A stretch of 64,000 bases of DNA from Nemertoderma westbladi. Lineage: Eukaryota; Animalia; Xenacoelomorpha. This document shows positions 6,201 through 59,239 of this stretch, in pieces. The stretch covers positions 1 to 64,000 of the forward strand of contig JAUCBJ010007533.1 of assembly GCA_032718475.1 (NCBI GenBank), read 5' to 3'. Under the pieces are notes generated by a model. It had not been told where the DNA came from, searched no databases, and was given only the letters and a program-made list of their open reading frames with translations. Each line of letters opens with the position of its first letter. Positions within the stretch are counted from its first letter, which is position 1. The position numbers and the translations under genes are program-made.

Positions 6201-9200
6201 GGGGGGAAGTGTCCGGGGGGGAGTGTCTGGGGGGGAAGTGTCCTACTTGAACGGGGGGGAACTGTCCGGGGGGAAAGTGTCCGGGGGGGGGAGTGTCTGG
6301 GGGGGAGTGTCTGGGGGGGAAGTGTCCTACTTGAACGGGGGGGAACTGTCCGGGGGGAAAGTGTCCGGGGGGGGAAGTGTCTGGGGGGGAAGTGTCTGGG
6401 GAGAAGTGTCCTACTTGAGCTGGGGGGGAACTGTCCGGGGGGAAGTGTCCTACTTGAGCTGGGGGGGAACTGTCCGGGGGGGAAGTGTCCGAACACCGGC
6501 TTGAATAATGAAATAATTAATTGATTAATATTCCCAAAAGTTATTATTTAAATTTAACATATTTGTATTAATTTGGTTCTGTTGTGTATCTTTTATCTGC
6601 TGTTTGCCTTTCTGTTTTTTAGCGTTTGTTGCTTTACTTCTGATTATTGATGTCTGAATTACTTGACTGTCAGTGTTTCCTATACAGTATCTCTCTCTGT
6701 CACTTTGTCTCTCTTTCAGACTGACTGTTTGTCTGTTAGCTTCTCTTTATCTGTCGGCTTTTTGTCTTTGTATATGTTTATCATTGTGAAGTAGGAATTG
6801 TTTTAATGTTTATGCTACTATTATGGTATAATAATCGTTTTTGTATGATAATTTCAAGGACTCCAGACAGCTGAGAACCCAGAGACACTGCACCGCATGC
6901 AGCTACAAGGGAATATGGCAACCGAAGTTGGGCTAATTGTTCTTGATCTTTTGGATAGATTTACTCTACTATATAAGGTTGGTCTGCAGTTGTTCAAATT
7001 ATTAATTTCCATAATTTTTGTCTGAAAATTCCAGTTTTAAGTATCCTATATATTTTTCAGATGTAATAAAGTTTACAATCCTATCCTATCGATGCTGCCA
7101 TAAAATGCTTTTCATAGAAATATGATTTGTGTGACGGGATCAGATAGAGGATCCCGGTTTATCCGGTGGTTAGATTTATTTACGCGTCCCGCCGTGTGAA
7201 AAGAGTGCGTTAGAGTTCCTGTTGTTAATCGTTCGGTATGTATATAATATAAAATGATATAAAGTATAAGCACAGTTATAGCGAATGCAGTTAGTAATTG
7301 CAGTATACAGACAACATGAATGAATAAACGGCTGAACGGTAATAAAAGTTGCCGTCCTACCCTAACTGAACTGGCTAGCTAATGAGTGAATGAATAACAC
7401 GGTTACTGGTAGTATATTGCACCGGTTGGCCGTATTACACTACTCAGCCGATGCCTTCCCCCCATTGGCTAATAACTCACTTCTCACCCTCCCATCTCCC
7501 TGGGAGTACTTCCCCCCCGCTGCTGTCTCTCTCTCCCTCCCGGAGGTGTAACCTCTGACCCCCGCTGTGTGTGTTCCCTTGGGGCCTATTGTCCCCGCTT
7601 ATTGGGGTGACACGAGGTTGATTGGTAACCAACCTCGTGCTCCCAATATTGCTTAAAACCAACTCTGTGGGCCTGGGTAGCGGAATTGAATACGCTAACA
7701 CTCCCCCCCATGCTATCTTCCCGGTGAGAAGATAGCATCCTCCTCTAGTGCGCTACAATTCCGCTGGATCTCGACGTAGCATCGAGTGTGGGGTGGAACT
7801 ATTTTCCCGGAGCCGGCTTTCCAGGCCGTTCCCTATGGGTATGATATTACTACCCCGTCTTGGTACAACTCTACCTATCTTACACCAAGACATCTGGCGT
7901 CCCGCGTTGGGCCGATCGTGCGCTTCTCCCACACAATTTTGTTTCCCCAACACTTTCACCACTAACTCCCCTCCACTTTCATCCTATCTCTTCCACACTC
8001 CCGGACCTCCTCGTCCCTCACTCTGCCTCTTACTTCTCCCCCCCCCCCCCACACTTGAATTGCACCCACACTCTCTCCGCGCTATCTCCACACCACCTCT
8101 CGCTATCTCTCATCCTGTCAAAAATCTCCTCTCCATTCTCCCCCCGATTCCCATTCTCGCTTTCGTCCCTTACACGATCATTGGGCCCCACACATGAGCG
8201 CTCATGTTGGTGGGAGCCGTCCAAGTCCCGTCCTGTCGCCCTAGTCAATTAATTCCCAGTCCCAGTGGCCATTGGAAAAAGGTTGTGCTCGACTACGGTA
8301 CGTACTTTATAATATATATATGTGAGTTACTTATATAATTATTATAAGGCTATTATTATCATATATTATATTATATGATCGTCCACATGACGCGCCTCAC
8401 TCTCTCGGCCTTTCTCCCCTGGCGACCTCTTCCAGTCGCCTCTCGCCAAATCTATCCGCTTCCAACTTCTCCCACGTGATATATGTATCCACCTCCCAGT
8501 CTGCTAGACGCCGGCTGTTGTATTACACCGACTCGCCCTCCAGCCCCAGGTGGTCTACAGACCTTCGAAGGCCACCCTTGAGGGCTCTTCTGTAGTTCGG
8601 AGGTGATCCTAATATCCTTAATTTTGTTTTAATTTTATTTTTTTTATCCCTATTTGCCCCTGTTCTGTGCTACTACTTCCACGGTCTCTACTCTCTTACT
8701 GCTAACTCTACTAACCCTTCTAGCTCTATTTTCTACTAACTCTTACTATATACTATATTTTATATCCCCCTACCACTAATTCTTGCTACTAACGGTACTC
8801 TACGTACCCTCTTACTAACTAGTTCTACAACTAACTACTACTCTTACTAGCCGGTACTACGTACCCTCTTACTAACTTCCAACTCTACTCTTACTAATCG
8901 GTACTACGTACCCTCTTACTAACTTCTCTAACTCTACTCTTACTAACCGGTACTACGTACCCTCTTACTAACTTCTCTAACTCCACTCTTACTAACCGGT
9001 ACTACGTACCCTCTTACTAACTTCTCTAACTCCACTCTTACTAACCGGTACTACGTACCCTCTTACTAACTTCTCTAATTCCACTCTCACTAACCGGTAC
9101 TACGTACCCTCTTACTAACTTCTCTAACTCCACTCTTACTAACCAGTACTACGTACCCTCTTACTAACTTCTCTAACTCCACTCTTACTAACCGGTACTA

Positions 9201-12200
9201 CATACCCTCTTACTGCTGACTCTTGCTAACTAACTACTTACACTTACTACGTACCTACTACGTACTATTACTTTCTCTTTATTTTTTTATATTTTTATTT
9301 TGTTTGTGGGAAGGGCGTCTCGCCCTCATTCCCACCCCCCTCAGTCCAAGACTTGGACGATTAAACTCTACTAAACCCCACTCTAACTCAACTAAGGTGC
9401 TCCCTCCAACAGGCAACACTTCCCTACAGCCCTCCTGTAGGTCTTCCTGTCTTTCGCAACTATCTTGCCACCTATCCGCACTTCTACCGACCGGACTCTT
9501 CCGTCCTCGTCGGAGTAAGTGCCCACAACTCTCGCCAACCGCCACTGGTTGTTGATGATGGTATCGTCGGTGACGATCACCAGATCACCCTCCTTTAACT
9601 CTCTGTTTGTGTTCCTCCACTTGCTTCTCCTGTGAAGCGTGGGTAGATATTCCTCAACCCACCTCCTCCAATACTCTGCGCTTATCGCCTTAGCGACTTT
9701 CCAACTCTGGCGGGAGTGTATGTCATCTGGGTCTACACCCCGCATATTGATGGTCGCTGGCCTTTCCATTAGAAAATGGCTGGGCGTCAGCACGTCTAAT
9801 GACTCAGGGTCATCATTTTCTGGATATAGCGGTCTGCTATTAATGATACCCTCACACTTCGCTAGTACCGTTCTTAGTACGTCCTCCGTAACCATGTGGG
9901 TGTTCATCAACTTCGTCATCAGACGCTTCGATCTACCCACGAGTCTCTCGACGGATCCTAGGGTATGCGGAGCATACGGCGTCCTCCTCTCCCACTTCAC
10001 TTGTCGTTTTCTCATGGCTGCCCTGACTTCCTCCCCTTCCAGGATATCCAAGGCCTCTGCCATCTCGTTCTCTGCCCCCACAAAGTTGGTCCCGTTGTCG
10101 GAGTATATTACTGCGATCGTCCCACCTTTGCGGTCTCTAAACCTTTCTAGGGCATTAATGAATGCCGATGCGGTTGCATCTTGGGCGAGTTCTATCCCTA
10201 CCGCCCGCGTGTTGTTACATACGAAGATGATACCGTAGCGTTTCTCCGTGTGCCGCATCACCTTAATCTTTATCGGCCCGAACATATCCACACCGCAATG
10301 CGTAAATGGCGGGTCGTGCTGTCTCACCCTACTGGCCGGTAGTGGCGCCATCTCCTGTATAGCTCACTCCTTCTTAGCTCGTCGGCAGGTCTGGCACTGC
10401 CCCACTACCGCCTTTACCTTCTTCCTCAGTTGCTTGACCCAAAAGGTCCTTCGTATCTCCGTGAGGGTCCAGTTAGTGCCCCCGTGCAATATCGACTTGT
10501 GGGAGTCCCAGATAATCTGGTGGACTATTGGCGATCCAGTCGGGATGATGATGGGCTTTGGCGGTATTACAATGCTGTTGTTGTTCAATACCCTAGAGTT
10601 CATTACTAGGATCCCGTCATCATTAAGTTGTGGTGACAGCGCGATCAGCTCGCTGTCCCGTCGGAGATGCTGTTGTTTACCGATGCGTCCCACCTCGTCG
10701 CCGTAGTTCTTCCTCTGCTCGTAGCGGATGACTGCTTTGGCCGCTCCCTCCAGATCTATGGTTGTTCTAATCTTTACGTCTTTGCCAACTCCCTTGAGGA
10801 AATCCCCGAAGGCTCTCCAGTACGCCACTAATTTCTTGGTCTTGTACCAACTAGAGCTGTAGCTGAGGAGTTTATCCGTCGGGTTATCGCACAGTTCTCC
10901 CTGTTTTGGTTGCACGTCCCCTATCTCCCTCACCATCTGGCTATAGATCTCTTCTCCCCCTGAATCTCCCTCTTCCTCCTTTAACGCTACTTCTCCTGAG
11001 CCCGGGTCCACCTTTCTCATCGGCGGCCAGGCCCCCTTATCGCTCAGAAACTGTGGCCCGTGTTGCCACAATACTTCCTTTTTAAAGAAAGTGTGGCGTG
11101 CCACGCCCCTCGATAACAAGTCCGCTGGGTTCTCGTCCATTGGGCAGTAGTGCCACCTTTCTAATTCTGTGGTCGTCCTTATTTCGTCCACCCTATTTGC
11201 GACGAATATAGGGTATCTCGTCCTCTCGTTATGTAGCCAGCCAAGCACTACCATGGAATCCGTCCAATAGTGTGTCTCCACTATGTTGGGAATAACTTCC
11301 ATTAAGTAGGCTGTGGCCCTAACTCCTAACCTCGCAGCTGTCAATTCGAGTTTCGGAACCAATGCTGAATCTGGTGGCGTCGACTTCGCCTTGCTAAAGG
11401 CGAGTCTGGGCTTGTGAGCCCCCTCTCGTTGTACTAAATAGAGTGCCGCTCCGTATGCCTCTAATGACGCATCGGAGAACATGTGCAGATCCAGATTCGT
11501 CATGTCCCCATCTGGGAAATACACTCGTAGCATGCTGTATGTTCCCATCTGCTCCAAACTCTCTGTCCATTTACACCACTGCTTTCTGATCTCTTCTGGT
11601 ACCTCTGCGTCCCACTCGTCCTTCAGTTTGTATACTCTCTTGAGTATCTGTTTCCCCGTGACTAACAATGGGGATGCTAGGCCTAGGGGATCGTATATCC
11701 TCGCTATGTACGACACATAATCTGCGCCCTCCTGGCTTAATTGGTACTTCAGCTCGTCCGCCTCTCTGTTCCACACGATCCCCAGTGCCTTCTGTTGGGA
11801 CTCTATTCGTTTGTTCGCCATGTCCTGTCCCTTGGCTGTCATGGGATTATCCATGGTCGATCCTGGTCTCTCATCCTTTATCGCCTCGATAAATTCCTCT
11901 GAACTGGACTGGAATTTGGTTAGGTTAAAGCCGGATCCTTTAAGGATGTCGCGAACCTCGCGCCCTGTGTCCAGTAGTTCCTTAACCGTGTTTCCAGACT
12001 CCATCCCGTCGTCTACATAGAAGCCGCGTCGAATCATATCGACGGCCCTAGCGCTGTATTTATCTTTCTTTCCCTCTACTGTGTCTCTTACGGCCATAGT
12101 CGTCGTGAATGAAGACGACTTGGCTCCCATATTCTGTACTATCATCTTGTACATCGGTATTGTCGACGGTTCTTCGTCGCCGTCGTACCATAGGAAGCGT

Positions 12201-15200
12201 TGACTATCGCTATCCTCTTCCGTTACACGGACTTGGTTGAACATGCCTTCTATGTCGCAGGTGAAGGCGTGTTTCCCATTCCTGAATCTGAGTAGGACCT
12301 CGATCCCTGAGTTGTAGATATTGGGACCCTCCAGCAGATAATCGTTTAGGCATTTGCCGTTGGTTTTAGCCGATGCGTCAACTACCATCCGCAGTTTACC
12401 TTTCTTCGGGTCTAGAGCCACGTGGAGTGGCAGGTAATAGGTCCTGTCCGTGTTTGGTTCGTCAACCGGTAGTTCCACGGCCCATCCCTTCTCGACGTAC
12501 TTTCTGATTGTCTTGTGGATATACTCATTCTTCTCGGGGCTCTGTTTTAGTGTCTGCTTCAACTTACGAAGCCTCGTGAGTACCATCCCTCTATTGTCGG
12601 GCAGCGGTAGCTTCGGTAGCTTCCATACCATCCCTATGGTATACCGCCCCTCGTCGCATCTCATCGACTCCTTTACGCTCTGTAGAGCCTGCTTGTCTTC
12701 TACCGAGGTTCCGACCCCGGTTTCCTTTAATCCCTCAAAATCCTGCCTGAGCAGTCTCTTGAGCTGCTCCTCCGCTCTCTCGTCTCCCATTTCTCGCATA
12801 GTTCCCGCGAACATGCAACCTGATGTCTCCGACATCCTAAATGGTATTTTACTTTTAATTGGGCCGCTCAGCGTCCACCCGAATGGTGTTAAAATCGCCA
12901 CCGGGTCACACTGCCTGTCTTCGCCGAAGATCGTTTGCATTCTCTCGTGGGCCATTGGGCAGTCCATTCCTACTATAATGGATACCTTCCTAACGTCCAC
13001 CTCTGGGATTGATAAATCGATACTGTCCAGGAATTTATATTGCTCGATCTCGATGTTGGTTGGTCGCCTGGCGTTGATGTTTATCGACTCTATCACCTGG
13101 ATGGGGTCGATGCTCGCCCCATAGTCGCATCCCGGTGCTATTGCTGCTATCGCACACCATCCGGTCCTCATCTCCAGGATCTCATCTTTGCTGGAAATGG
13201 TTGTTACCGCCATTCTACTTGGCCTCGTTCTCAATCCTATCTCCTCGGCCACCCAATTCTCGACTAATGTGAAGGCAGCTCCACTGTTGACCAGCATCAG
13301 TGTGGTCACTGATCGATTGCCTTCCCCGATCACTCGCACTGGTACTACCTCAAGTAGTACCGTTCCTCTTTTCTTCGCCCCTACGGTGCTCGTTGCCATT
13401 GTCTGACCTTTAATTTGACCGAATTTAATTGGCGTTTCTTCGCATTGGCCGGCTCTATGTCCACCCATCACACACCGAGAACAGATCTCATTTCGTCTCG
13501 CGTATTCTACCTGATCTTCCCTGGGTAGCGCTTGCCAGTACCTGCAGTTCATGGTCTGATGAAGTGCATTTGTATGTAATTGGCATTTGCTCTCTGGGTT
13601 GTAGCCGTCCTTATACAGTGCGCTGCGTATCGCACTTGCGTTCGTACCAAAGTCCCTACTATTCTTATTGTTTGGGTTCGGCCTACTGGGCGTGCTGGGG
13701 TTATGTTTATTTGTGTTGTTATTTTTCCCCTGTCCGCTCCATGATGTGGTCTTACCCCCGGCTACATGTGGACTAGCAGTCCCCTGCGTCGCCGCGTATG
13801 GCAGCGATTGTCTGAGCTTTGGCAATGCGTTCGCCGCGTTGTGTTCTGGTTTCGGCCTACTGTACTCGGTCTTTGGTCCCTTTCCCAGGCTATCCTCGCT
13901 ATAGACTGGGTCCGTTATAAGTTCAGCCTCATAGTTTAAGAAGCTTGACATCTCTTCTAAACCCGGTTCCGCACCCTTCTTATCTCGAGTGGAGAAAGCG
14001 ATTTTCCTCCACTTATTGCGCAGCCAAATCGGTAGTGCCTGCGCTATCGTAGTGATGTTGTTGGACGCGTTGAGTTTGTATGGCGCGTCCAGCGCCTTCT
14101 CGACTTTGTTAGCGAATGTCTTTATGCTAACGGGGTTATCCTGTAGGCCACCCGATGTTATACCTCTCAGGGTCTGCCGGATGATCTTGGCCGGGTGCCT
14201 GTATTCCCTGTCTAACGCCCGCCATGCCGTCGTGAAGCCCCCTTCGATGCCCTGGTACTGCCTCACGATGTCGTATGCTGGGCCCCCTGTATATACTTGC
14301 AGATACTTTAGGCACTCCGCCTGCGTCAAATTCTTTGTTAATATCTCATTACTATACATACGCCGAAACTGTAGATACTCCTCCGGCCTACTTCCATCGA
14401 ATTTGAATGGTTCCACGGGTGGTAACTGGTCTTTAATGCATCGATTAACGTGGCCATCCCCATAGCTTGCGCTTCCAATGGGTTCGATGGGTGCTGTATA
14501 GGTTCTCCCGTTGGGTGCGGTCCGTTCGTCCTGTCTACCTCTTTCCTCTGACTTGGATATATCATAGGGGGTAGCGGCCCCCTCCATATTTCTGTGTCGC
14601 ACGATCTATTCTCGTCCAAGGGGTTCGATGTTCTTACTCCTATTGGGGTATATTGTTGATATTGTGATGGGGGAATGTCACCCTGTCCCCCCCCCCCACC
14701 CCCCCCCCCCCCCCCCCCACCGGTATGTTTGGTACTGGGTCTGGGGTTGATGTTAATATATTGGGGCCCATACACCTATCCGCAATAATTCTCCCCTCCC
14801 CTGGGTATATGTTATGTCCTTGCATGCTGTAGTCATACTGCTGTGCTGGTACCGGTATAGGCCTATCCACTTCTGGCCTACCCGCCGGTATATACTCCAC
14901 GACTTCCGGGTTTAATCCCGTTGTTCGCACTACCCTATCGCCTACATTATCTCTCCCAGCATGGCCTATGGTATGTGCAGTAAGGCCTACAGTATGTCCT
15001 GCAGTCTGTATGTGTTGTTCGGGATCAAAGTTTATCCTTCTCGAATAATCCTCCTCGCGGCTACCGTATTCTCGATCGGTAGGTATATCCCGTCGGGAAG
15101 TTTCTCTTCGACCCCCTCTACTGCTCTCGTCCTCGTGCCGGTAGATAGATAAGTAGCGCCTGGAGCGCTGTATATTTTCCATGTTCCTAATTAAATACAT

Positions 15201-32131: not shown

Positions 32132-32308
32132 AGGGTGCTTAGATCGTGGCTTTTCAAGTTAGCATTATTCAATTTTGTATAAAACAAGTGATGTGGTTGG
32201 AGAAACCTGCTAGGGGCTGCTACTAAGCAGCAACCAATCACGTTAATCCTGTTTCACACAATTCAATGAGAATGGAATATTGCTAACTTCAAAAAGTTCA
32301 CTGTTACC
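32132..32308 (+). mobile_element. About 175-bp MITE-like repeat, copy A
   Basis: Reverse complement of 33302-33467; internal inverted repeat AAGTTAGCA..TGCTAACTT. Confidence 0.65.
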
Positions 32309-33301: not shown

Positions 33302-33467
33302 TTAACCTGAACTTGTTCATGTTAGCAATATTCCATTCTCATTGACTATGTGTGTTAAACAGGATCAACGTGATTGGTTGATGCTTAGTAGCAGCTTTCT
33401 CCAACCACATCACTTGTTTTATACAAAGTGGAATAATGTTAACTTCAAAAGCCACGATCTAAGCACC
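33302..33467 (-). mobile_element. About 170-bp MITE-like repeat, copy B (inverted relative to A)
   Basis: Reverse complement of 32132-32308. Confidence 0.65.
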
Positions 33468-42900: not shown

Positions 42901-45900
42901 GTTGGTAGACAGTACATTCGTAAGTATAAGTTGGTAGACAGTACATTCGTAAGTATAAGTTGGTAGACAGTACATTCGTAAGTATAAGTTGGTAGACAGT
43001 ACATTCGTAAGTATAAGTTGGTAGACAGTACATTCGTAAGTATAAATTGGTAGACAGTACATTCGTAAGTATAAGTTGGTAGACAGTACATTCGTAAGTA
43101 TAAGTTGGTAGACAGTACATTCGTAAGCATAAGTTGGTAGACAGTACATTCGTAAGTATAAGTTGGTAGACAGTACATTCGTAAGTATAAGTTGGTAGAC
43201 AGTACATTCGTAAGTATAAGTTGGTAGACAGTACATTCGTAAGTATAAGTTGGTAGACAGTACATTCGTAAGTATAAGTTGGTAGACAGTACATTCGTAA
43301 GTATAAGTTGGTAGACAGTACATTCGTAAGTATAAGTTGGTAGACAGTACATTCGTAAGTATAAGTTGGTAGACAGTACATTCGTAAGTATAAGTTGGTA
43401 GACAGTACATTCGTAAGTATAAGTTGGTAGACAGTACATTCGTAAGTATAAGTTGGTAGACAGTACATTCGTAAGTATAAGTTGGTAGACAGTACATTCG
43501 TAAGTATAAGTTGGTAGACAGTACATTCGTAAGTATAAGTTGGTAGACAGTACATTCGTAAGCATAAGTTGGTAGACAGTACATTCGTAAGTATAAGTTG
43601 GTAGACAGTACATTCGTAAGTATAAGTTGGTAGACAGTACATTCGTAAGTATAAGTTGGTAGACAGTACATTCGTAAGTATAAGTTGGTAGACAGTACAT
43701 TCGTAAGTATAAGTTGGTAGACAGTACATTCGTAAGTATAAGTTGGTAGACAGTACATTCGTAAGTATAAGTTGGTAGACAGTACATTCGTAAGTATAAG
43801 TTGGTAGACAGTACATTCGTAAGTATAAGTTGGTAGACAGTACATTCGTAAGTATAAATTGGTAGACAGTACATTCGTAAGTATAAGTTGGTAGACAGTA
43901 CATTCGTAAGATTTATAAAAGACAACATTTACTTTACAATAAGCAGTTTGGATTTCGGAGAGGATTTACTATATTAGATCAATTGACACGTGGCAGAGGA
44001 ATGGCGTCTTAAACTAAATCACAATAATTGTCTAAGTGTTGCATTTTTGACCTCAGTGAGGCATTCAACTCCCATCAATCAAAAAAAAAGCAAACAGTCG
44101 GCCGAAGCCGGAGGCGACCCAAAGGCTCCTCTTTCGATAGCTGCTATCCGAGAGGGTAGGGGTGGGCGCTACTCCTATCCCAAGATGTGCTCCCAGTTAT
44201 TTAACTGGTACTCATTTTATCGACCCCAGTGGATGAAAGGCTGAGTGGACCCTGGCGGGGCTGAACCTACAACCACTAGATTGCAGGCCCGGCGCTCAAC
44301 CAACTGAGCTACCATCCCTAACTCCCATCAATAGAAATATAATGTTACATAGGTTAGAAAATGTAGCATTTTATACCACCTCGCATGCACTCGTACAATA
44401 TTATCTTACAAGTCGGAAACAACTCGTAAAACTAGGAGACACACTATCGCCATGGTTGACAGAAACTACAGGTGTTCCTCAGGGTACAACGTTTGGGGCC
44501 ACTACTTTTTATACTTTACACTACCAAACATTATGTTACATGACACAATACGCCGACGACACGAGTTATATAAACTACCGTAATTGATCCACTGACAATA
44601 TGCAATGCACTAGAAACGCTATTACAGCAACTATTTATTGAACACCATTTAAAATTAAATCCCTCAAAAACATAATTCTTACTACTATCCCCATAACAGT
44701 AGGTACCAAAGATGGCTCTCTGCATCCTTCTGCCATTAAACTGGGCGTGGGATGCGGAGAGCCTATCTATATATCAGTCAAAATCTGTTAAATACCTGGG
44801 CGTACAAGTAGATAAACAATATGCAATGGAAAGAACAAAAATAGACAAAATACAAAGTAAATTGGCGCAAAGTATATCTTGTTTACGAAACATAAATGGG
44901 CAACCGACAAAGAAAACAAAATTACATATTTATAAAGCTCTTTCTCTACCTTTTTAAACAACTACTTCTATATCTAATTCTGTTATCTGTCTGTCTGTCG
45001 GTCTATCTGTCTGTCTGTTATCTAATTACTACTATCTCTACAAAACAAACACGGCTACAAGGAATTATTATATTGCTTAAAACTCAGAACTATGCATTGC
45101 GAACGATTTTCGGAAAACGCATCAGAGACAACACGGGAACCGAGCGAGACAAACGGCCAACCTGCCGCTACTCAGTGCGGCACTCTATCTTATACTGAAT
45201 TCAAGTCGAAAATCAAAAATTACACTACGTTACAAAATATAATAGGTATGGATCAACTTTAACTAACTGTGTAATATATTGTCCGTCAATTATTTGTGTG
45301 TGTCATTATTACAGCTTTATTTCATTGTATATATTTTATTCTACATTGTATCCTTGTACTACTGTATCCTCATAAATTATAAGTATTATTCATAAGTATT
45401 ATTATTATAAATAATTATTACAGTAGGCTAAAGTACATTAATTGGGTTGGCCTAGCTACTCTCTCCTTTGACGCCTATTCGTTCACTAACTATCAGTCCA
45501 GTAATTGGGTTGGCCTAGCTACTCTCTCCTTTGACGCCTATTCGTTCACTAACTATCAGTCCAGTAATTGGGTTGTCCTAGCTACTCTCTCCTTTGACGC
45601 CTATTCGTTCACTAACCATCAGTCCAGTAATTGGGTTGGCCTAGCTACTCTCTCCTTTGACGCCTATTCGTTCACTAACTATCAGTCCAGTAATTGGGTT
45701 GGCCTAGCTACTCTCTCCTTTGACGCCTATTCGTTCACTAACTATCAGTCCAGTAATTGGGTTGGCCTAGCTACTCTCTCCTTGACGCCTATTCGTTCAC
45801 TAACTATCAGTCCAGTAATTGGGTTGGCCTAGCTACTCTCTCCTTTGACGCCTATTCGTTCACTAACTATCAGTCCATGTGACGGGATCCAGGAGGGATC

Positions 45901-48900
45901 CCGATTTATCCGGTGTGGAATTTAGTCCACGCGTCCCCGCCGTGTATAAGAGTGAAATAAAGATAACTGAGTTCTGAAGTTCGGTGTATAATAAGAGGTT
46001 ATAAGATATAGATATATTGTGAATGTGTACAAGGCGGGATACGGTAACTAAAGTCCCGTGATCCCCTAACTAAACTAATTGGCTGTACCCTACGCTAGCA
46101 CTGCTGCACTGAGATAACTGAATCACTGATTAATAGGTTATTGGTTATATTGCACGGTGGCCTTACTGCTACTCAATCGATGCCATTCCCCCCTCTGATT
46201 GGTTAATACCCTTGTTGGCGCCCCGTGGAGTATTCCCGTTCACTCCACCTGTTCTCTCTGGGTTAGGGGTTTGGCCCCTGACCCTCTATTGTGTGCTTCC
46301 TTCCCACTTTCATTGGGATGGCGCGAGTTGGTTAATTGCCCAATCTCGTGGCTCCCAATATTGCTTATCGGCTAATAACTTTATGGGGTGTTGGCGGGAT
46401 TGAATAAGCTAACACTCCCCCCCATGCTATCTTCCCGGTAAGAAGATAGCATCAACCAAAAAAGTGCGCTACAATCCCGCTGGATCCCGATCTAGCATCG
46501 GGTGTGGGGTGGAATTCTTTTCTCTCGGGGTCGGCTTTCCAGGCCGCCCCCTATGGGTATGATAACGCTACCCTGTGTGCCTGGCGTCTCATGTCGGGCC
46601 GATCGCGCTCACCTCTTCACGCGATTTTTGTTTCCCCAACACTTTCGCCCTATCTAACCTCTACTCTCACCCTAACTCTCTCATACCCCCGGACCTCCTC
46701 GTCCCTTACTCAGCCTCTCATTCTCCCCCCCCCACACTAGAATTGCGCTCGCACTCTCTCCGCACTTCACACTCTTATTCCGATTCTCAAGTCCACTTTG
46801 ACTGCTCCATCTCTCCTGACGAACCTCCCCCCCCCCCTCTCGTGCCGCCGCACTCAAGAAGTGTGAAATTGTCAGTTGTCTCGTCCGTAGTGCCATAGTC
46901 AATTGTCCCCCAGTCCCAGTAGCTAATTGAGAAAGGTTGCATGACTATAGTACTTACTCCAAACGTATGTATTTTACTGCTAATCACTACGTACGTACAT
47001 ACAAATTGCACTTATATAGTTATTTGCATTAATTAAATTTATACTTAATAGTTCGTACGTTACATGCGGCGCCTTCCAGGCGCACCACGTCCCAGTCTCA
47101 GTCTCATTCCCTCGCCTCCGGGAACTTATCTGTACCTCCTCACGTCCTCCTCCCTGGCCCGTTTCTTGGTTATCACCGCTCCTCTGGCATCATCCGCTTT
47201 CTGCTTCCGGACCTTTGCCGCCACTTCCTTGCTGATCCCGGTCGTCGGCTCCTTGGGCGCTGGTGTTATTAAAGCCCGATACCGCTTCGCCGGTGGCCCC
47301 TCAGAATGGCCTGGTTGTTTCCCTCGTGTGGCGTCCCATAGGATCATCTTCATTGCCTTTGGTACGTGTTCCGCCAAGAAATCCCTAAACTCCCTCCGGT
47401 TCTCTGGTGTCCACCTGTCCAGGTACCGTTGCGTGTTCATAACTCCGGCGAACGATGCCGCCGTAGCTACCTCTTGATAGGTAAACGGTAACCTTCGCTT
47501 TATGATTTCCATGTGGGTCTCCTGGTTTATGAGGAAGAAACCCCACTTGAACTCTTGGGCCTTCATGCGCTGGCGCGTCATGGCCCCGACGTCGGCCCAC
47601 TCCTCGAACCTCGTGAACTTCTCCTCGTCGCTCATCCAGTCGCACTCGCGTCCGTAGTGCCCCCGAAAGTGGCACTTTGGACATCGGTTATGCAACCGTG
47701 GACACGCCCCCATCCTGTGACTTGGTTCTCTACAATAGAGACAAAAGGTTCCCCGTTGGAACCGGTATAGGCAGCTGCTTTCCTGATGGGTCTGTCTCCC
47801 ACAGTAGTCGCAGCCGAGTACCAATGTCTCGCGTCCCACCTCGTCCTTCGTCCCAAGCGATCTCCGCGGTCTATGGAGTCGCTGGTAGGCAAACTTCTCC
47901 ACGTTGCTCTCCCTGTTTACGTCGATCTCTCCGCCCCTCTCGGGCATCGTCTCCCCGAATACTATCCGTGGTGCCGTCCCCGGTTGCTCGCCCAACCTGA
48001 TGGTGCTCCCCGTGAAATCCATCGCCGGCCCCTCGTGCACCCAGGTCCGCTTGCCGGATCTGTTCCAGAAGGCCCTCGCCCCACTGGCCGTCACCACCCT
48101 TCCGCCAACCCAGTCCGTGTCCGAGTGGCCTATCCTTTCGATGGGCGGTATCTCTCCGAACTCGTCGTCGTTGTCCTCCTCTTCTGGTAGTGTCTCCAAT
48201 CCCGGTATCCCGGTGGATCCACTATGTCCCTTCCCGCCTTGGCTCTCGCCCGTAGCTCTCCATCCCTCTAGCTCCCTTAACTTCCTTGGCGGTTGGTCGC
48301 CCTCGGCGCCCGCTGGTATGGGCATCGCGTGCAACCCCGACGTCGACTTGTTTCGGCGATCCCACCGTCCATCCCAATTCTCGCCCTAGAGACTCCCCCG
48401 AACTCCCCGACGAAGTCCAATGAAGTTCGTCTAGGCCCGCCTGTTCCTCGAAGCCGTAACTCTGTGCCCTGGCCTCCTCTTCCCTCTCCTCTGCTTCTAT
48501 CCTCTCCCGTCTAGCGACTTCTTCCAGTCGCTTTGCTTCCCGTCTATCCATCTCTAGCTGCTCCCATCTCTGATACGGTGTATCCGTCTCCCCATCTACC
48601 AGATGTCGGCTGTTGTAGTACACCGACTCGCCCTTCAGCCCCGGGTGGTCTACCAGACCGTCAAAGGCCGTCTTAAAGGCTTTCCTGTAGCTTAGGGGTG
48701 ATCCCGATAACAGAAATGCCCCTGGTTCTCTTTCGATAACTACGGTCATGAATAAGTTAAGTAAACTTATCATCATCCAGTCCTCCTGCAGGATATATCG
48801 CTTCTGATATACCTTTATCGCTCCTCTGCGAAACTGATATACCTCCTGCTTTCCCGGTCTCGCTCCCCACTTCAGCGAGTTCGCTAGTTCTGCTCCGTAT

Positions 48901-51900
48901 TCTTCCCTAAACTTTCCCCAGTCCATCGGTTTGTGGCATACGAGCCCCAATAATTGGCCCATCGCCACCGCCCCGCTTTGGCCTGAGTTCTCGACCACCT
49001 CCAATCCATCCGGTGCCGTCATAGCCATAAAGACTTTCTGCATATCCAGGAGGTTGGTGGCGTCCGGACCGATGATCCTCTCCGCGTCCTCGCGAATCGC
49101 CGATCCCACTTTCGTCGTCGACTTCTCTCTTACTAAGACCTGTACCGCTTTCGGCAGTCGGTCTAATTTCGGCCCGTCCTTCTTCCCATACGTCCCTAGG
49201 TCGAATAAGAAGATGTCCCCATTTGGCGCTGCCAAATGCAAGAGTATGGTCCTGGCCGACCCTGCCGTTCCTCGTCTCGAACCCGCTTCGTCTTCCACGG
49301 TTCCCTCGTCATCTAGGATCATATATCCTCCTCTGTTGACGGACTCTATGAATCTTTTCCAGTCCTTCCTCGGCGATTCCCTCGGATACTTCGGAATCCC
49401 GAACTTCGCCTCGTCTCCTTTCACCACGTAGTGGAAGTGTTGGAAGATCGTGTTGTCCAGCGACGGCATCCCGTAGGTCCCGACCAACCGCTGTTCGTGC
49501 GCCTCCCGGAAGTGATCCTGCAGCGCTCGTGCCGCGTGACCCCTTTCCAACCTCTCGTAGTATCCTCTCGTCTTCTCCTCCGGGTGTCTTTCGGTGAAAT
49601 CCACCAATATTTCTTTTCCTCCTGACTCCGCCTTTCTCTTCCTGATCAGCTTACTCGCCATTCCGAACACTACACTCGCTCACCTGCAGGGTGGTGCCTT
49701 ACCAAGGCGCAATACAGATGAGTGATGTATTAAGATGTTTCGTACAGTTCGATAATGGCCTACTTTTCTACTTAACTGCGCCTTTCAAGCTTAATTTAAT
49801 CTAATTAATTTCGGAGCTAGTAAATCAGCCTAATTTACAATTTCCGTCCGTTACTTTTATTATGTTCTAGAACGACTTTCCTTGTGTTACCACTATTTTC
49901 CGATTTTAGCCCTATTCTATTTATTTATTTATTTTGCTTTGATTCTACTGTCCTACTACTTACTACTGCCTATGGATTTATTCTATTCTCTGATCCATAT
50001 TCTGGCCTACTCTGTGGGCCTATGCAGCACAGCAGTATGCGTCGTGTGGCCACACGATTTATCCAGCTGTACTCATATGCCCCCCTCTCGCTACTAACTC
50101 TACTTACTGCTAACTAATATCTATATCCTATTTTACCCCTTTTACCTCTTACTCTCTCTCTCTAACTAATGGTACTACGTACCCTCTAACTCTAACTCTA
50201 TCGGTACTACCTACCCTCTAACTCTAACTCTAACTAGGCATTACGTACCCTCTAACTCTCTAACTATCGGTACTACGTACCCTCTAACTCTAACTCTAAC
50301 TAGGTACCACGTACCTACTAACTCTAACTCTATCGGTACTACGTACCCTCTAACTCTAACTCTAACTAGGTACTACGTACCTACTAACTCTAACTCTAAC
50401 TAGGTACTACGTACCTACTAACTCTAACTAACTATTGGTACTACGTACCTACTAACTAACTAACTCTAGGTACTACGTACCTACTAACTAACTAACTCTA
50501 GGTACTACATACCTACTAACTCTCTAACTCTAGGTACTACGTACCTACTAACTAACTAACTCTAGGTACTACGTACCTACTAACTAACTAACTTTAGGTA
50601 CTACGTACCTACTGACTTACTAACTCTAGGTACTACGTACCTACTAACTAACTAACTTTTATTTTTATTTTTTATTTTATTTTATTTGTGTGGGAAGGGC
50701 GTCTCGCCCTCAATCCCACCCCCCTCAGTCCAAAACTTGGACGACTAAACTTCACTCTAACTCCGCTCTAAGGTGCTCATTCTAAGAGACAGGTAACACC
50801 TCTGCCCGCACCTTTTACGGATCTAACTCTTCCATCCCAGTCCAACCTGTTGGACAACTCAGCGACCCAAGGGGTGATTCCTCCAGCAGGCAACTCTCCC
50901 ACTGCCCCCCTATAGGTTCTCTAATTCTTCGCTCCGCTCTCCTTGTCAATTCGATAGGTGGTCTTTTCTCCTGTTTTGGCAAATGCTGTCTCCTATTTAT
51001 GTTTCTGATCTCGTGGTCGTCCCTTGGCGGCAAAGTGCCACCCTTCAACGTGTCACTCGGCGGTATAATGCCGCCCCTGTTCTTCTCCTTAATTTTAGAT
51101 GCCACCTCTGTTGGCCTCCCCCTTAATATGTGTGCTGGCATTAAAGGCTTCAACGACCCCCGTTCGTCCTTCGGTATACACGATGTCTGCCCATGTAATG
51201 CCCCCTCGCACTCTGTCAGTTCCGCGTGCGTACGCAGCACGCCTCCTACTCTCCCGCCTCCTTTGTCCACCATATGTTTATTCATGGGCTTCTCTGCCCC
51301 CGGTCTGATCGTCTCACATCTTCTCCCTTTCCATCTTGTATTCTTACTCGGCTTCCCCCTTGTCGGTATGCCTCTCAACCGGACCGGCGTCTCTTCCGGA
51401 CGCTCCTCTGGACACTCCACCGGACACTTCTCCGGTTTGTCCTCCCGACACTCCACCGTCCGCTCCTCTCCATCTCCATACCGATACTTGCTGGGACCCT
51501 TATTCCAACCCATCGCCTCTAGGTCTTCCGCATCCATACCATTCTCCTCCGCCCACTCTCTTGGTGTTGCTTCTACTTCTAGCTGTCTACCACTATTGCC
51601 CATCTCTGGCCTCTCCTCTATTTCGTCAGTTCCTGGCATCATGCATCCTGAGCTCTCGGACACATGGAATGGTATATTACTCTTAATTGGGCCTGTCAGT
51701 GTCCACCCGAATGGTGTTAATATTGCCACCGGGTCACTCTGCTTGTCTTCGCCGAAGACCGTTTGCATTCTCTCGTGGGCTGTTGGGCAGTCCATGCCTA
51801 CTATGATGGATACCTTCCTAACGTCCACGTCTGGGATTGAGAAGTCAATGTTGTCCAGGAATTTGTATTGCTCGACCTCGATGTTGGTTGGCCGCCTGGC

Positions 51901-54900
51901 ATTGATGTTAATTGACTCTATTACTTGGATGGGGTCGATGGTTGCCCCATAATCGCATCCTGGTGCCACTGCTGCAATTGCGCACCGTCCTGTCCTCATC
52001 TCTAGGATCTCGTCTTTGCTAGAGATGGTTGTCACCGCCATCCTGCTTGGCCTCGTTCTCAACCCTATTTCTTCGGCTACCCATTCCTCAACTAATGTGA
52101 AGGCAGCTCCACTATCAACCAGCATTAGTGTTGTTACTGATCGATTGCCTTCCCCGATCACTCGTACTGGTACTACTCCAAGTAGCACTGTTCCTCCCTT
52201 CTTCGCCCCTACCGTGCTCGTTGCCATCGTCTGGCCTCTCCTTTGGCCAAACTTGACCGGCTTCTCTTGGCATTCCCTGGCCTTGTGTCCACTCTTTACA
52301 CATCGCGAGCAGATTTTATTGCTCGACGCGTAATCTATCTGGTCTTGCCTCGGTAGCGCCTGCCAGTACCTGCAGTTCATGGTTTTATGAAGCGCATTTG
52401 CGTGTAACTGGCATTTGCTCTTTGGGTCATAGCCCTCTTTATACAATGCATTGCGTATCGCAGTTATATTCGTACCAAAGTCCCTACTATTCTTATTGAC
52501 TGGGTTTGACCTACTGGACGTACTGGGGTTATGTTTATTCATGTTGTTATTGTTCCCCTGTCCGTCCCTTGATGTTGTCTTATCTTCGCTTGTCTGTGGA
52601 CTTGCAGTCCCCTGCGTCGCTGCATATGGCAATGATTGCCTGAGTCTCGGTAACGCGTTCGATGTATTGTGCTCTGGTTTGGGCCTGTAGTGATCTGTCT
52701 TTGGTCCCTTTCCCAGGCTATCTTCACTATAGACTGGGTCCGTTATTAGTTCAGCCTCGTAATTTAAGAAGTTTGACATTTCTTCTAAACCTGGTTCCGC
52801 ACCCTTCTTGTCTCGGGTGGAGAAAGCGATCTTCCTCCATTTGTTGCGCAGCCAGCTCGGTAGTGCCTGCGCTATCGTGGTGATGTTATTGGACGCGTTG
52901 AGCTCGTATGGCGCGTCTAGCGTCTTCAGCACGATCAGCGCCTTCTCGACTTTGTTAGCAAACGTCTTAATGCTAACGGGATTATCCTGTAGGCCACCCG
53001 ATGTTATGCCTCTCAGCGTTTGCCTGATGATCTTGGCCGGGTGCCCGTATTCCCTATCCAGTGCCCGCCATGCTGTCGTGAAGCCGCCCTCTATTCCCTG
53101 ATATTGCCTCACGATGTCGTATGCTGGGCCTCCCGTGTACACTTGTAGATACTTTAGGCACTCCGCCTGCGTCAAGTTTTTTGTTAGTATTTCGTTACTA
53201 TACATTCGCCGAAACTGTAAGTATTCTTCCGGCCTGCTCCCATCGAATTTGAACGGTTCCACGGGTGGTAATTCGATCCTCGTTTTCAACGCATCGATCA
53301 ACGTGGCCATCCCCATTGCCTGCGCTTCTAATGGATTCGACGGGTGCTGTATAGTTTCCCCTGTCTGGTGCGGTTCGTCCGTTCTATTTCTTGATCTTCT
53401 CTGACTCGGATATGTCATCGGGGGTAGCGGCCCCCTCCATATGTCTGTATCACACGACCTGTTTTCATCTAGGGGTCTCGTTGTTCTTGTTCCTGTCGGG
53501 GTATATTGTTGATATTGTGATGGGGGAATGTCACCCTGTCCCCCCCCCCACCGGTATGTCTGGTACTGGGGTTGATGTTAATATGTTGGGGCCCATACAC
53601 CTATCCGCAATAATTCCCCCCTCCCCTGGGTATATGTTATGTCCCTGCATGCTGTAGTCATACTGCTGTGCTGGTACCGGTATAGGCCTATCAGCTTCTG
53701 GCCTACTCGCCGGTATGTATTCCGCGACTTCCGGGTTTAATCCCGTTGTCCGCGCTATCCTATCGCCTACATTGCCTCTCTCAGTATGGCCTACGGTATG
53801 TGCAGTAAGACCTACAGTATGCCCTACAGTCTGCATGTGTTGCTCGGGATCGAAGTTTATTCTTCTCGAATAATCCTCCCCGCGGCTACCGTATTCTCGA
53901 TCGGTAGGTATATTCCGTCGGAAAGTTTCTCTTCGACCCCCCTCTCCACTGTTTTCATCTTCGTACCGGTACATCGCGTACCCCTCTCTCGGCGTGTAAT
54001 GCGTCTCATCGGATCGCATCCCTCCGGGGCGACGGCAATCTCCCGGAGTCCGACCCCACTGACTCTCCGTTCTCATCTCGACTACCGACGGCTCGCTGTC
54101 CGTCCTCGCTCTTCTATCTTTTGCGGCGATACTTCTACTACTCTCTTCCTCTCTTCTCCTATCAGTGGAATATTCCCGCTCACGAGATCTCTCGTCGACC
54201 TCCCGGTTAAACCCCACTGTTCTTCTTTCCTCCTCTGATCGGGCTCGACGCTCCGTCTGCCCTCCCGCGACGTCAACCTGTCTTTCTCTGCTCGATCGCA
54301 CGTCGCTGGGGATACTCGCAATCCCCCTATTACTTTCCGTCGCCGGTTGTTGCGGTTTACCTTGTTCGGCCCTCGCATTGTCCGCTGACGGCTGTGGGAC
54401 ACTCTCTGCCCCCCCCTCTCGCCGCTAACTTTCTGTTGTGGGGTGCTCGTAGCCCCCCCCCACTCGCTACATCTAACTTCGCTACCTCTCTCCCCACTAT
54501 TATATACCTCTCTAGTCGACACATCGACCCTACTGCGGTCGGGCCCATTCACCCCCGCCTCTCCCTCTGCTATTGCGTGGCCTTCCAGGCCCTCTGCTCC
54601 CTGCCTACCAACTACGTGGCCTACCAGGCCCTCTGCTTCCTGTCTACTAACTACGTGGCCTACCAGGCCCTCTGCTCCCTGTCTACTAACTACGCGGCCT
54701 ACCAGGCCCTCTGCTCCCTGGTTACGTAGGCCCGACGTGTTTACATTAATAGCACCCATATTAGAAACGGAATTAATTTGCTCGCCTGAAACAAAACCAT
54801 TTGCATTACTCTGCGCGACCACGTTGACTGAATTATTCTGTAAATTCGGGCTAAGATCATTATTTAAATTATTCGAATTATTCTGTGTAATTGCGTTATT

Positions 54901-57900
54901 TAAGTTATTTTGTAGGTCCGAATTCGGATTATTATTTTGATTATTTGAATTATTTTGCGTAACTACATCAACATTAGGATTATTTTCTACATTAGTACTT
55001 GGGACTGTTCTGATTTAAATTTAAGTTACTACCACCAGGCAAAGTATTTCCTGCAATAAAGGTTTGATTAGCGTTATCCCATACGGTACTATTAATATCA
55101 ACAACGTCTACTGTACCATCATTATTATTACCCCCCCCCCCGCCCGTACGGTCACACCAGTTTTGGGTCTGTCGTGCGGTCCCTGTCAGTGGGGTATTAA
55201 TAAACGTGTCTACGGCCCCTGGCTCCTCAAAAATACTCGAGCCGGCCCCGCTTTCAGACGGCAACGCTCGGACCAGTTCCAGCTCGTGCGCCCGTCTAAT
55301 CTTATTTTTCGCCGATTCACCTTGGCGCTTCTCTAAATCCCTTAGCTCTTGCTCAGCCTTTGCCCCTCTCTTCTCACTCTCCTGACTGTCCCGTCTGGCC
55401 GACTCTACCACACTCCTAGCGATCTCCCTTCGCCTCGCCTCACGCTCCTTACGTTCCTTTTCCTTTCTCGCCTCATATTCCTTGCGTTCCGCCTCACGCT
55501 CTTTGCGTTCCTTTTCCTTTCTCGCCTCATATTCCTTGCGTTCCGCCTCACGCTCTTTGCGTTCCTTTTCCTCCCTAGCCTCACGCTCTCTACACTCCTT
55601 TTCCTCTATTTCGTCACTCTCCCTAAGGCTCCTCAAAGCCCTTTCGAGCCTCTCTCCGTTCTCTTTAATCAATGCCGCTTCCCTCGCTAACCGCGCTCTC
55701 CCCTCCTCTAACCGTTCCTCCATTTCCTTCTGACCTTGCTCTGCCACGTCGAGACGGTATGCGGCACCTACCTCTCTCACCACTCTTTCTTTCGCGGAGG
55801 ATGTAACAGACTTATCGGTTACGACGGACTTCCCCCGCCTTCCCGACCTACTAACTTTCTCCCCCTTCCCGGAGCTTTCTCCGACCGACGAGGCCGAATC
55901 CTCGGGGTTAACCTCGGATTCGCCCCCTTCGAGTCCCCTCCAACCCACTGGTTTTACTCCCCGGGCATCGACCAAGTATGGCCCTATGTACACTGGCGCT
56001 ACACTAGGTTCCATACTCCCACACTCCCATAGTTCAAACAGTTCGCCGGCTATCCTTTCTGCTCTCTCCCCGGCCAGTTCTCTCTGCCCAAAACGTATTA
56101 GGTAATTTAAGTGTTTATCCGACTCACCTAGTCGCTTTCTCAGTCTCACCTCGTCTACCTTCGCCCCTTCCTTCTTGGCGTCGTTTATCAGCTTCCGGGT
56201 CGCGTTGTAGGCCCGTCGAAGTCGCTCAGAAACCCCGACGTCCTCGTCGCCGACCTCTCCTCCGTCCCTCCGGGTCCGACGTCGTACCGGCGGCTCCACC
56301 GTCGCCGTTCCGGTGGGCCGTCCGTCGCCCTCGGCCTGTAGCTGGCCGGCGACATCGGTACCGATCTCTCCTCCGTCTCTTCGTGTCCGGCGTCGCACCG
56401 TCGGCCCCACCGTCGCCGTTTCGGTGGGCCGCCCGTCGCCCTCGGCCTGTAGCTGGCCGGCGACATCGGCGCGCCGTTCTCCCTCTCGTGTCGACTCATC
56501 TCCTTCTCCCTCCGTCTCGCTCTCTCTCTCTCTTGGCTCGACTTCGGGTTCCAGGCCCCCCTCGTCCTGTGCTTCCGGTTCGCCCGTTATCGATGGCTCC
56601 GGCGTCGTGGGCCTGTATCGTTTGGTCGCGGCCTCGCGGATCGTTAGGTCTTCGTCCGGGGTCCGCGGTGGCGTCTCGCCCGACTCACTCATCTCGTCTG
56701 GTGGCTGATGGTTCGGCTAGCTAGGGTGGAGTTCTTTGTGTTTAACTGGGGCGGCAGCTCGTCTTTAGTTACTGAGTTTAGCTGGGGAAGCAACACCGAT
56801 TTAGTTACTGTGACGGGATCCAGGAGGGATCCCGATTTATCCGGTGTGGTATTTAGTCCACGCGTCCCCGCCGTGTATAAGAGTGAAATAAAGATAACTG
56901 AGTTCTGAAGTTCGGTGTATAATAAGAGGTTATAAGATATAGATATATTGTGAATGTGTACAAGGCGGGATACGGTAACTAAAGTCCCGTGATCCCCTAA
57001 CTAAACTAATTGGCTGTACCCTACGCTAGCACTGCTGCACTGAGATAACTGAATCACTGATTAATAGGTTATTGGTTATATTGCACGGTGGCCTTACTGC
57101 TACTCAATCGATGCCATTCCCCCCTCTGATTGGTTAATACCCTTGTTGGCGCCCCGTGGAGTATTCCCGTTCACTCCACCTGTTCTCTCTGGGTTAGGGG
57201 TTTGGCCCCTGACCCTCTATTGTGTGCTTCCTTCCCACTCTTCATTGGGATTGGCACGAGTTGGTTAATTGCCCAATCTCGTGGCTCCCAATATTGCTTA
57301 TCGGCTAATAACTTTATGGGGTGTTGGCGGGATTGAATAAGCTAACAGTCCAGTAATTGGGTTGGCCTAGCTACTCTCTCCTTTGACGCCTATTCGTTCA
57401 CTAACTATCAGTCCAGTAATTGGGTTGGCCTACCTACTCTCTCCTTTGACGCCTATTCGTTCACTAACTATCAATAATATTTAATGGAAGTGTGAACATT
57501 AAAGTTTTATCAATTTATGCTACCGGTACTTGTATTTTTCGTGCCAAATTGGCACATATCCAAAAATGCCACAATGAATCGGATATGATATGATATGAGT
57601 GTCATATTCATGATCATCATCCCGGAATGCCCCTAGTGCCATAATATTAGTTTGATTTGTGGTGATTTTTCATTATCATATTTGCACTACTTGTTTTTTT
57701 CGTGCCCCGGGCCACATTCAAAATTACTAGAAATTTTATTGTATGTTTTGTCTGAGTTCTATAATCGTGATCAGCATCTAAAAAAAACCTTTATATACCG
57801 CAAATAAATTAATTTTATCGAGCTATTAAAACTTTTGAAGACGTTTTCGCGCGAAAATTACTGGAGATGAGTGCCAGAAGGAGACAACACGAAAACTAAC

Positions 57901-58649: not shown

Positions 58650-59239
58650 GAGCGGTGTCTCTCTGTCTGCGGTCTGGGGGCCCTTTCTACTACAGAGTCT
58701 CCCTCTATAAACTCCTACCTACGTCCCACACCTGAGCTATAGGGTTTAGAGTTTAGATCTACTACAATCACTGTAACATATTTATTACCTTAATTTTTAA
58801 CGTTTTTAATGAATGGGAGTTTATATTTAGTCTGGTTGTCTCGCTAGTGAATAATTATTTTATGATTAATTTAATTTTATCCGAAACTCGATACATTTAT
58901 ATACCCCGTTTGTATTTAACGTAGCTGCTTCCATAAAGTAATAAAATATATTAAAAAAAAATGTATAAAAAGCGCCGTTAATATTAATAGTTATAAATAT
59001 AATATAATATATCAAAATAATATAATAAATAAATAATATAATATATCAAAATTTATTAATTATGATCAATTTCAGTTTCAGTATACAATACAATACACTT
59101 TATTTAATTCATCACATGTAAAAGTCTAAATGTGTGTAATAGTGCTTAATATCTTATAAACTAAAAAATTGTTTAAAAACTTAAAAAGGGAAAATGAGTT
59201 TATATTTTTGGTTATAAAATTTGTATCCATACTTGGGTA

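Follow-up and report, generated by a model that had tools for sequence, protein, structure and literature searches.

A family of BEL/Pao retrotransposons with long terminal repeats (LTRs) in Nemertoderma westbladi carries a third gene, here called ORF3. Two members of the family, elements A and B, lie on the minus strand of the window, the 64-kb stretch of contig JAUCBJ010007533.1 that we analysed and to which all coordinates refer. In element A, ORF3 is found on the minus strand between an integrase relic and the polypurine tract, that is, in the env position. Its product is predicted to be a very divergent WRN/EXD2-type DEDDy exonuclease with 3'-5' activity, followed in a second reading frame by three exact CCHC zinc knuckles. 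ORF3 occurs in two diverged sublineages of the family, and it is kept by purifying selection across copies. We tentatively propose that the nuclease domain, likely joined to the knuckles and likely RNA-trimming, shields the RNA of the element from small-RNA surveillance.

A predicted exonuclease domain in ORF3

The initial annotation of the window, made from its letters alone, had noted two overlapping sense-strand open reading frames (ORFs) ahead of the polypurine tract. Both are present, at 48222-49679 and 47126-48385 on the minus strand; they overlap by ~160 nt and stand in different frames. The parts of ORF3 are as follows:

48222..49661, minus strand: first frame of ORF3, with its ATG at 49661 (ORF 48222-49679), from the ORF list and the motifs
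48720..49400, minus strand: WRN/EXD2-type DEDDy exonuclease domain (predicted), with D117 (49313), E119 (49307), D192 (49088), Y289 (48797) and E293 (48785)
48335..48357, minus strand: interval of the frame break in element A, from a codon-phase switch and a length variant (contigs of studies X1, X3 and X6, see below)
47126..48385, minus strand: second frame of ORF3, with an acidic/Gly linker, three CCHC knuckles, a ~100-residue region and a basic tail

The motif order of the first frame had been likened to that of WRN/Mut-7/EXD/RNase D exonucleases, and all of the motifs are found. Numbered from the ATG, they are LDDEG (116-120), LHLA (141), IFLFDL (150), KVGSAIRED (184-192), LDMQ (205) and YILQED (289-294). 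The residues formerly given as D120, E122, D195 and Y292 correspond to D117, E119, D192 and Y289, the earlier numbers being higher by three.

In the ESM Atlas, the 227-residue domain scored 0.95 to clusters of WRN-like 3'-5' exonucleases: 30 of 30 matches were to PF01612, with 185-188 shared features, and PF01612 is present in 34-42% of the members of the matched clusters. A longer piece of ORF3 scored 0.85-0.86 there, a result from the same source and not independent of the first.

For profile comparisons, bacterial WRN/EXD2-like exonucleases were picked by an ExoIII motif and 77 were extracted; all four of those checked are PF01612, and the one compared with the PDB was nearest to WRN. Against this set hhalign gave ORF3 a score of 36.6 over 63 columns (probability 66%), to be compared with 14.3 ± 2.7 for shuffles (maximum 26.2 among 150) and 12.8 for the reversed protein. 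The matched part differs from the ExoIII motif used to pick the set. When the domain was aligned by MAFFT with 54 WRN-like exonucleases, D117, E119, G186, D192, K271, Q286, Y289 and W295 proved invariant in 55/55 rows; all three Exo motifs aligned in order, with the D-x-E of ExoI and the Asp of ExoII in place. Identity to the bacterial WRN-like members is 16-24%, and a 26-residue insertion precedes ExoIII.

We also compared subgroups, using bacterial profiles of 30 sequences each: the domain scored 35.0 (probability 63%) with the WRN-like profile and 24.0 (6%) with that of RNase D. The respective shuffle maxima were 23.3 and 28.4, which places the RNase D score within the shuffle range. On these scores, the domain appears to fit the WRN/EXD2/Mut-7 subgroup better than RNase D.

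An AlphaFold model based on an alignment with known exonucleases (pLDDT 72.5, rising to ~91 in the ExoI beta strand) gave structural matches that were all DnaQ-like, as the initial annotation had expected of a true exonuclease. Its top Foldseek matches were RNase D, EXD2 and RICE1 (E 3e-5 to 6e-4), and in a structural comparison NrnC came out best (Z 11.0, rmsd 4.0, 153 aligned), with the subgroups tied.

Several observations pull in the other direction. The hhalign probability is just 66%, and 3% in global mode. The fold matches are partly circular, because the model was built from an exonuclease alignment (the ESM Atlas result is independent of it), and single-sequence AlphaFold reached a pLDDT of 31.5. 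A plain hidden Markov model of the WRN-like set gave 6.5 bits, above 1000 of 1000 shuffles and tied with one of the 91 other ORFs of the window, an unrelated one. No significant relative of ORF3 was found in NCBIfam, PHROGs, PDB sequences, word-indexed protein searches or Pfam, where the suggested check returned no significant domain for either frame. Finally, ExoIII reads Y-x3-E: the Tyr pointed out earlier is present, and Glu293 stands under an Asp whose conservation in the alignment with the 54 WRN-like exonucleases is 90% or more, with an Asp at 294. This Asp-to-Glu change leaves catalytic activity open; it weakens membership in the canonical DEDDy group, not a DEDDy-like working. Overall, we regard the assignment to a DnaQ-like WRN/EXD2-type exonuclease fold as very probable.

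Among phages, tblastn gave nothing significant for either ORF3 frame, and viral and metagenome contigs held no related loci. The phmmer match obtained among 1.84 billion representatives, 19 residues of a 2805-aa tandem-repeat protein, was discarded as spurious.

Zinc knuckles and the frame break

The second frame holds the three exact C-x2-C-x4-H-x4-C knuckles noted at the outset, at 47812-47771, 47743-47702 and 47683-47642 (gaps of 9 and 6 residues), as well as a basic tail. At least one exact knuckle arose in 7/50,000 shuffles of the second ORF; Pfam knuckle families matched ORF3 at E 0.18 or worse only.

In a simple window scan of hydropathy, ORF3 showed neither a signal peptide nor a transmembrane (TM) segment, the marks of a retroelement env, and we reject an env identity, as had been done at the outset. 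The highest 19-residue hydropathy is 1.3 in the first frame (ExoIII helix) and 0.57 in the second. With this maximum and a basic N-terminus, ORF3 is not env-like.

Related copies were available as short contigs from three sequencing studies of one organism: 6196 from X1, possibly the source sample, 3490 from X3 and 65 from X6. Run X5, perhaps RNA, gave 8 contigs and was set aside. In these copies, third-position variants are in phase with frame 1 at 48372 and 48357 but with frame 2 at 48335 and 48329. Within 48335-48357 there is a length variant, seen in 12, 5 and 1 contigs of X1, X3 and X6, respectively (the sole X6 contig there carries it), and additional contigs are clipped precisely at this interval. 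The phase switch and the length variant place the break here, and other copies likely have ORF3 as an uninterrupted gene of some 840 codons. The fused protein of ~845 residues imagined in the initial annotation is likely in substance, with the break at 48335-48357 and not at ~48385. In element A itself, the break may be a genuine mutation or may stem from the assembly.

Frame-changing length variants are listed at 49672 and 49675, immediately upstream of the ATG at 49661, which fits that ATG as the start. At 49683-49692 (minus strand), 22 nt upstream of it, CAG/GTGAG matches both acceptor and donor consensus; this site may serve a subgenomic ORF3 RNA.

Purifying selection across copies

Selection was measured on the short contigs over the ORF3 region, whose source copies may be with or without pol. 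Variants were taken as the best 40 of 499 places for the whole region and the best 40 of 65 for the nuclease core. As only these best-supported, deep variants are listed, the selection ratios are rough.

Across the whole region, 36 of the best 40 places lie inside ORFs, and 27 of these 36 are third positions (P 4e-7). Among the best 40 in the nuclease core, 32 are silent, against 31% expected under the same mutation spectrum (P 2e-10), giving a ratio of nonsynonymous to synonymous change (dN/dS) of ~0.11. Catalytic codons are hit by 0/40 of these listed changes, and no length variant is among those listed in 48760-49340. The knuckle frame behaves similarly: 14/24 listed changes are silent, where 24% were expected (P 4e-4; dN/dS ~0.23). 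ORF3 is kept by purifying selection across copies. The initial annotation had named dN/dS below 1 as a check and neutral decay as a refutation; the former is seen and the latter is not.

Two sublineages of one BEL/Pao family

Element A is a BEL/Pao LTR element at 45878-57347 (minus strand), and element B, the second family member in the window, occupies 7130-19008 with a 5-bp duplication, ATTTG. Their parts are:

45878..46414, minus strand: 3' LTR of element A (TG...CA), the same as the 5' LTR in 535/539 columns
46415..46423, minus strand: polypurine tract directly adjoining the 3' LTR, from sequence
50771..51628, minus strand: decayed integrase (IN) C-terminal relic, standing in for reverse transcriptase (RT)-RNase H-IN, from comparison with element B
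50815..53577, minus strand: Gag-protease (PR) ORF of element A (DUF1759, two Cys-His boxes), continuing into the integrase relic
53531..56716, minus strand: 5' part of gag, spread across three further frames, from the ORF list
56809..57347, minus strand: 5' LTR of element A, from the LTR pair comparison
8409..8609, minus strand: ORF3 relic in element B, between integrase and 3' LTR (60% identity over 68 aa, E 2e-15)
9392..14605, minus strand: gag-PR-RT-RNase H-IN of element B, broken by one stop, from Pfam and YVDD

The family is BEL/Pao by the domain set and order of element B. Pfam detects Peptidase_A17 (PF05380, E 1.5e-37), DUF5641 (PF18701, E 1.5e-24), PF03564 and PF00665, and YVDD is found; the Pao-specific domains (DUF1759 gag, Peptidase_A17, DUF5641) and the PR-RT-RNase H-IN order are all there. 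In element A, the Gag-protease ORF contains DUF1759 (E 5e-11) and an aspartyl protease (E 2.5e-5), and identity to element B is 84% across 2.4 kb, in keeping with the BEL/Pao context first proposed. TG...CA LTRs, a polypurine tract and 5-bp target-site duplications around A and B are likewise as expected of BEL/Pao. Gag has two Cys-His boxes only, in A (52270-52410) as in B, the first being a C-x2-H variant. A triple box is usual for Pao elements, and some members, e.g. Tas, are without it (PMC554778). Neither A nor B has the triple box.

In element A, the integrase relic is followed by an AT-rich spacer containing a tandem array, then by the two ORF3 frames and the polypurine tract. What had been called a pol relic is the decayed end of an integrase (63 aa, 36% identity to the element B integrase, E 9e-7). 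RT and RNase H are missing, no YVDD occurs in the ORF with the integrase relic, and this copy thus lacks the intact RT, RNase H and integrase of an autonomous element.

The insertion of element A is recent, given LTRs identical in 535/539 columns and a 5-bp GTCCA target-site duplication; its insertion site is a 63-bp tandem array. The flanks of the integrase relic are 83-85% identical to element B, while the LTRs are 99% identical to each other. Gag-PR of A and B differ with a dN/dS of 0.10 at a silent divergence (pS) of 0.44 (533 codons). The gag-protease in frame with a decayed integrase, the flank identity to B and the 99% LTR identity together suggest that element A belongs to an old non-autonomous, pol-less sublineage that has recently moved.

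The ORF3 relic of element B differs from ORF3 of element A with a pS of 0.45 (66 codons), matching that of gag-PR. From this equal silent divergence, ORF3 would already have been present in the common ancestor of A and B and would have moved with the element.

Both elements have tandem arrays between the integrase end and ORF3, at 50150-50657 (A) and 8787-9278 (B), with a common TACTACGTACC-like core and differing periods; these arrays may be a regulatory spacer. In element B, Asn replaces a protease Asp, a stop precedes the integrase core, most of ORF3 is deleted, the 5' LTR is truncated and gag is interrupted by an inserted LINE (ORFs 15417-17039 and 17318-18154).

Proposed role of ORF3 and alternatives

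Judging from its composition, ORF3 most likely specifies a soluble protein of nuclease, acidic linker, knuckles and basic tail that acts on RNA 3' ends. Unbroken copies would make it as a single protein some 840 residues long; its RNA would be subgenomic and might be spliced, in which case it could use the CAG/G acceptor-like site 22 nt upstream of the ATG. The knuckles and basic tail would bind single-stranded RNA, and the nuclease would trim antisense RNAs or guide precursors from their 3' ends.

That ORF3 shields element RNA in this way is quite possible, and we prefer such a counter-defence for three reasons. Like cargo is found in retroelements with different replication modes; ORF3 has been retained alongside gag-PR by a copy in which pol decayed long ago; and related cellular enzymes (Mut-7/Nibbler, EXD1) work in small-RNA pathways. 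DEDDy ORFs recur in LTR and Penelope-like retroelements, whose replication modes are unlike, and mut-7 and EXD1 are named in the Discussion of the paper describing them (PMC5408684). The case also has its weak sides: the anti-silencing role was picked by analogy and the three reasons are indirect, no contig covers the entire ORF3, the fusion being drawn from short contigs over the break, and the variant evidence comes from the best 40 of 65 and the best 40 of 499 places only.

A wider version of the proposal is that a BEL/Pao lineage independently recruited a WRN/Nibbler-type nuclease, fused to nucleocapsid-like knuckles, as a suppressor of piRNA/siRNA silencing, that its value leads pol-less derivatives to retain the gene along with gag-protease, and that DEDDy capture is a convergent counter-defence across LTR superfamilies. 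We hold this to be somewhat doubtful. To our knowledge, few animal retrotransposon proteins counter small-RNA silencing, and ORF3, if it does so, would be among them. Its unbroken, compact exonuclease domain is suited to assay.

An RT is unable to proofread mismatches, and the ORF3 protein could instead be a replication helper in the particle, which trims primer RNA or cDNA 3' ends or removes mismatches; this we consider rather unlikely. No TGG-type primer-binding site follows the 5' LTR of element A, and the leader begins with 9 bases exactly complementary to LTR positions 56983-56975 (58/20,000 shuffles, or 222/20,000 with offsets of 0-4). The complementarity hints at unusual priming, possibly in need of trimming, and resembles Tf1-type self-priming, at which the sequence of element A may hint. 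However, it was noticed post hoc, and the primer site of element B is deleted. Nucleocapsid-like knuckles would suit a particle protein in a family whose Gag has two Cys-His boxes in place of the usual three (PMC554778), and 3'-end processing of element RNAs has been proposed for similar genes (PMC5408684). On the other hand, ORF3 stands apart from pol and has been kept in a copy that lacks RT, and there are other BEL/Pao elements, e.g. Sinbad, that have no third gene and still replicate (PMC554778).

A second copy of the complementary leader bases lies ~36 nt beyond the first, within 56763-56808, with its LTR partner at 56975-56984. Rfam gave no match, and no tRNA gene was found.

Egalitarian works in RNA transport, and the ORF3 domain might be a weak or dead nuclease serving, like EXD1, Maelstrom and Egalitarian, as an RNA-binding adaptor that routes or packages element RNA, e.g. 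to the germ line, in env's stead. The replaced ExoIII Asp speaks for this, three knuckles and a basic tail are compatible with it, and the tied structural matches include EXD1 (Z 10.1, rmsd 4.0) and Egalitarian (Z 9.7, rmsd 4.5), with 165-167 aligned, although the model behind these tied ranks is biased by its alignment. Inactive DEDD derivatives that retain RNA binding are noted in PMC5408684. With three of the four acidic positions and the Tyr intact, the fourth still acidic and no listed variant in these codons, we find an adaptor distinctly unlikely.

The two frames could also yield separate products, a nuclease and a knuckle protein, or be joined by a programmed frameshift, instead of being one broken gene. 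They do overlap by ~160 nt, and part of the depth at the break is without the length variant (3,939/11,400 with it in X1 and 6,956/15,106 in X3). Against this stand the recurrence of that variant in all three studies (12, 5 and 1 contigs), the clipping of contigs and the switch of codon phase at the same place; moreover, Gag of element A is likewise split over several frames, which is to be expected if the copy has decayed or carries errors. Separate products are very improbable.

That ORF3 is a recent, neutrally drifting host capture, or resembles an exonuclease by chance, would agree with the lack of a significant homologue in the databases searched and of a Pfam match, but is largely refuted and hardly credible in view of the core dN/dS of ~0.11, the pS of the element B relic (0.45, as against 0.44 for gag-PR) and the alignment of all motifs in order.

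Other features of the window

35314-35829: exon belonging to a cytidylyltransferase-like gene of the host (PF01467, E 1.4e-4)
22630-23796, minus strand: 388-aa ORF with several hydrophobic segments, GPCR-like by eye, with no significant Pfam match
32134-33467: ~180-bp inverted repeats (85% alike) with ~1 kb between them, probably a non-autonomous DNA transposon
59100-64000, 42700-43960 and 2216-4292: long tandem or minisatellite arrays in what is a repeat-rich window

Comparison with known systems

The Juno and Vesta LTR families of bdelloid rotifers are Ty3/Gypsy-like. In these and in Athena/Terminon elements, Rodriguez, Kenefick and Arkhipova (2017) described DEDDy ORF3s with a DEED motif, whose variation is mostly neutral and whose copies are few (PMC5408684), and the findings are repeated in reviews (PMC6431247, PMC5718144). 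The initial annotation had mentioned such cargo in rotifer and nematode LTR elements: PMC5408684 bears out the rotifer part, while the nematode part finds no confirmation there, the word 'nematode' being absent from that paper.

ORF3 of element A is like that of Juno, Vesta and Athena in being a DEDDy 3'-5' exonuclease gene by prediction, placed after pol where env would stand, without TM or env features and with Glu at one acidic position. Unlike Juno and Vesta, whose integrases are of GPY/F type (PMC5408684), the host element here is BEL/Pao. The motif reads D-E-D-E and not DEED. Three CCHC knuckles follow the nuclease here, whereas 'CCHC' is absent from PMC5408684 and 'knuckle' refers there to gag and pol, and ORF3 is under purifying selection where the rotifer genes, according to that paper, vary mostly neutrally.

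With the cellular exonucleases of PF01612 (WRN-exo, EXD2, Mut-7/Nibbler, EXD1 and plant WRN-like proteins), the domain shares motif order and spacing (DxE; an LQL-like strand; KVG-x5-D; a DLQ-like motif; Q-x2-Y-x5-W) and a predicted RNase H-like fold. It differs from them in the Glu of ExoIII, the 26-residue insertion, the knuckles that follow and its being borne by an element.

As in those BEL/Pao elements whose third gene is env-like (Tas, Cer7, Roo and the mosquito elements with a Chuviridae-like glycoprotein), an extra sense ORF stands between integrase and 3' LTR (PMC554778, PMC13524379). Those third genes are described as membrane fusogens, unlike ORF3, which is enzyme-like and without a signal peptide or TM segment. 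No BEL/Pao exonuclease ORF or exonuclease-knuckle fusion was reported in the literature searched, whose coverage leaves out most subscription papers and Repbase reports; novelty may be affected by earlier annotations of nematode Cer elements. The word 'exonuclease' is absent from PMC554778, PMC13524379 and PMC2774666, and its single occurrence in PMC11662393 is unrelated.

While this kind of cargo is itself known, new here is a predicted exonuclease in the env position of a BEL/Pao element that is WRN-like, bears knuckles and is under purifying selection. Rodriguez et al. left open whether exonuclease ORF3s benefit their elements (PMC5408684). The cargo described here is of the same kind but belongs to another LTR superfamily, has a WRN-like source, is under clear purifying selection in a family of many copies and comes with a further, predicted RNA-binding module. 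Accident thereby becomes less likely than repeated capture for a function.

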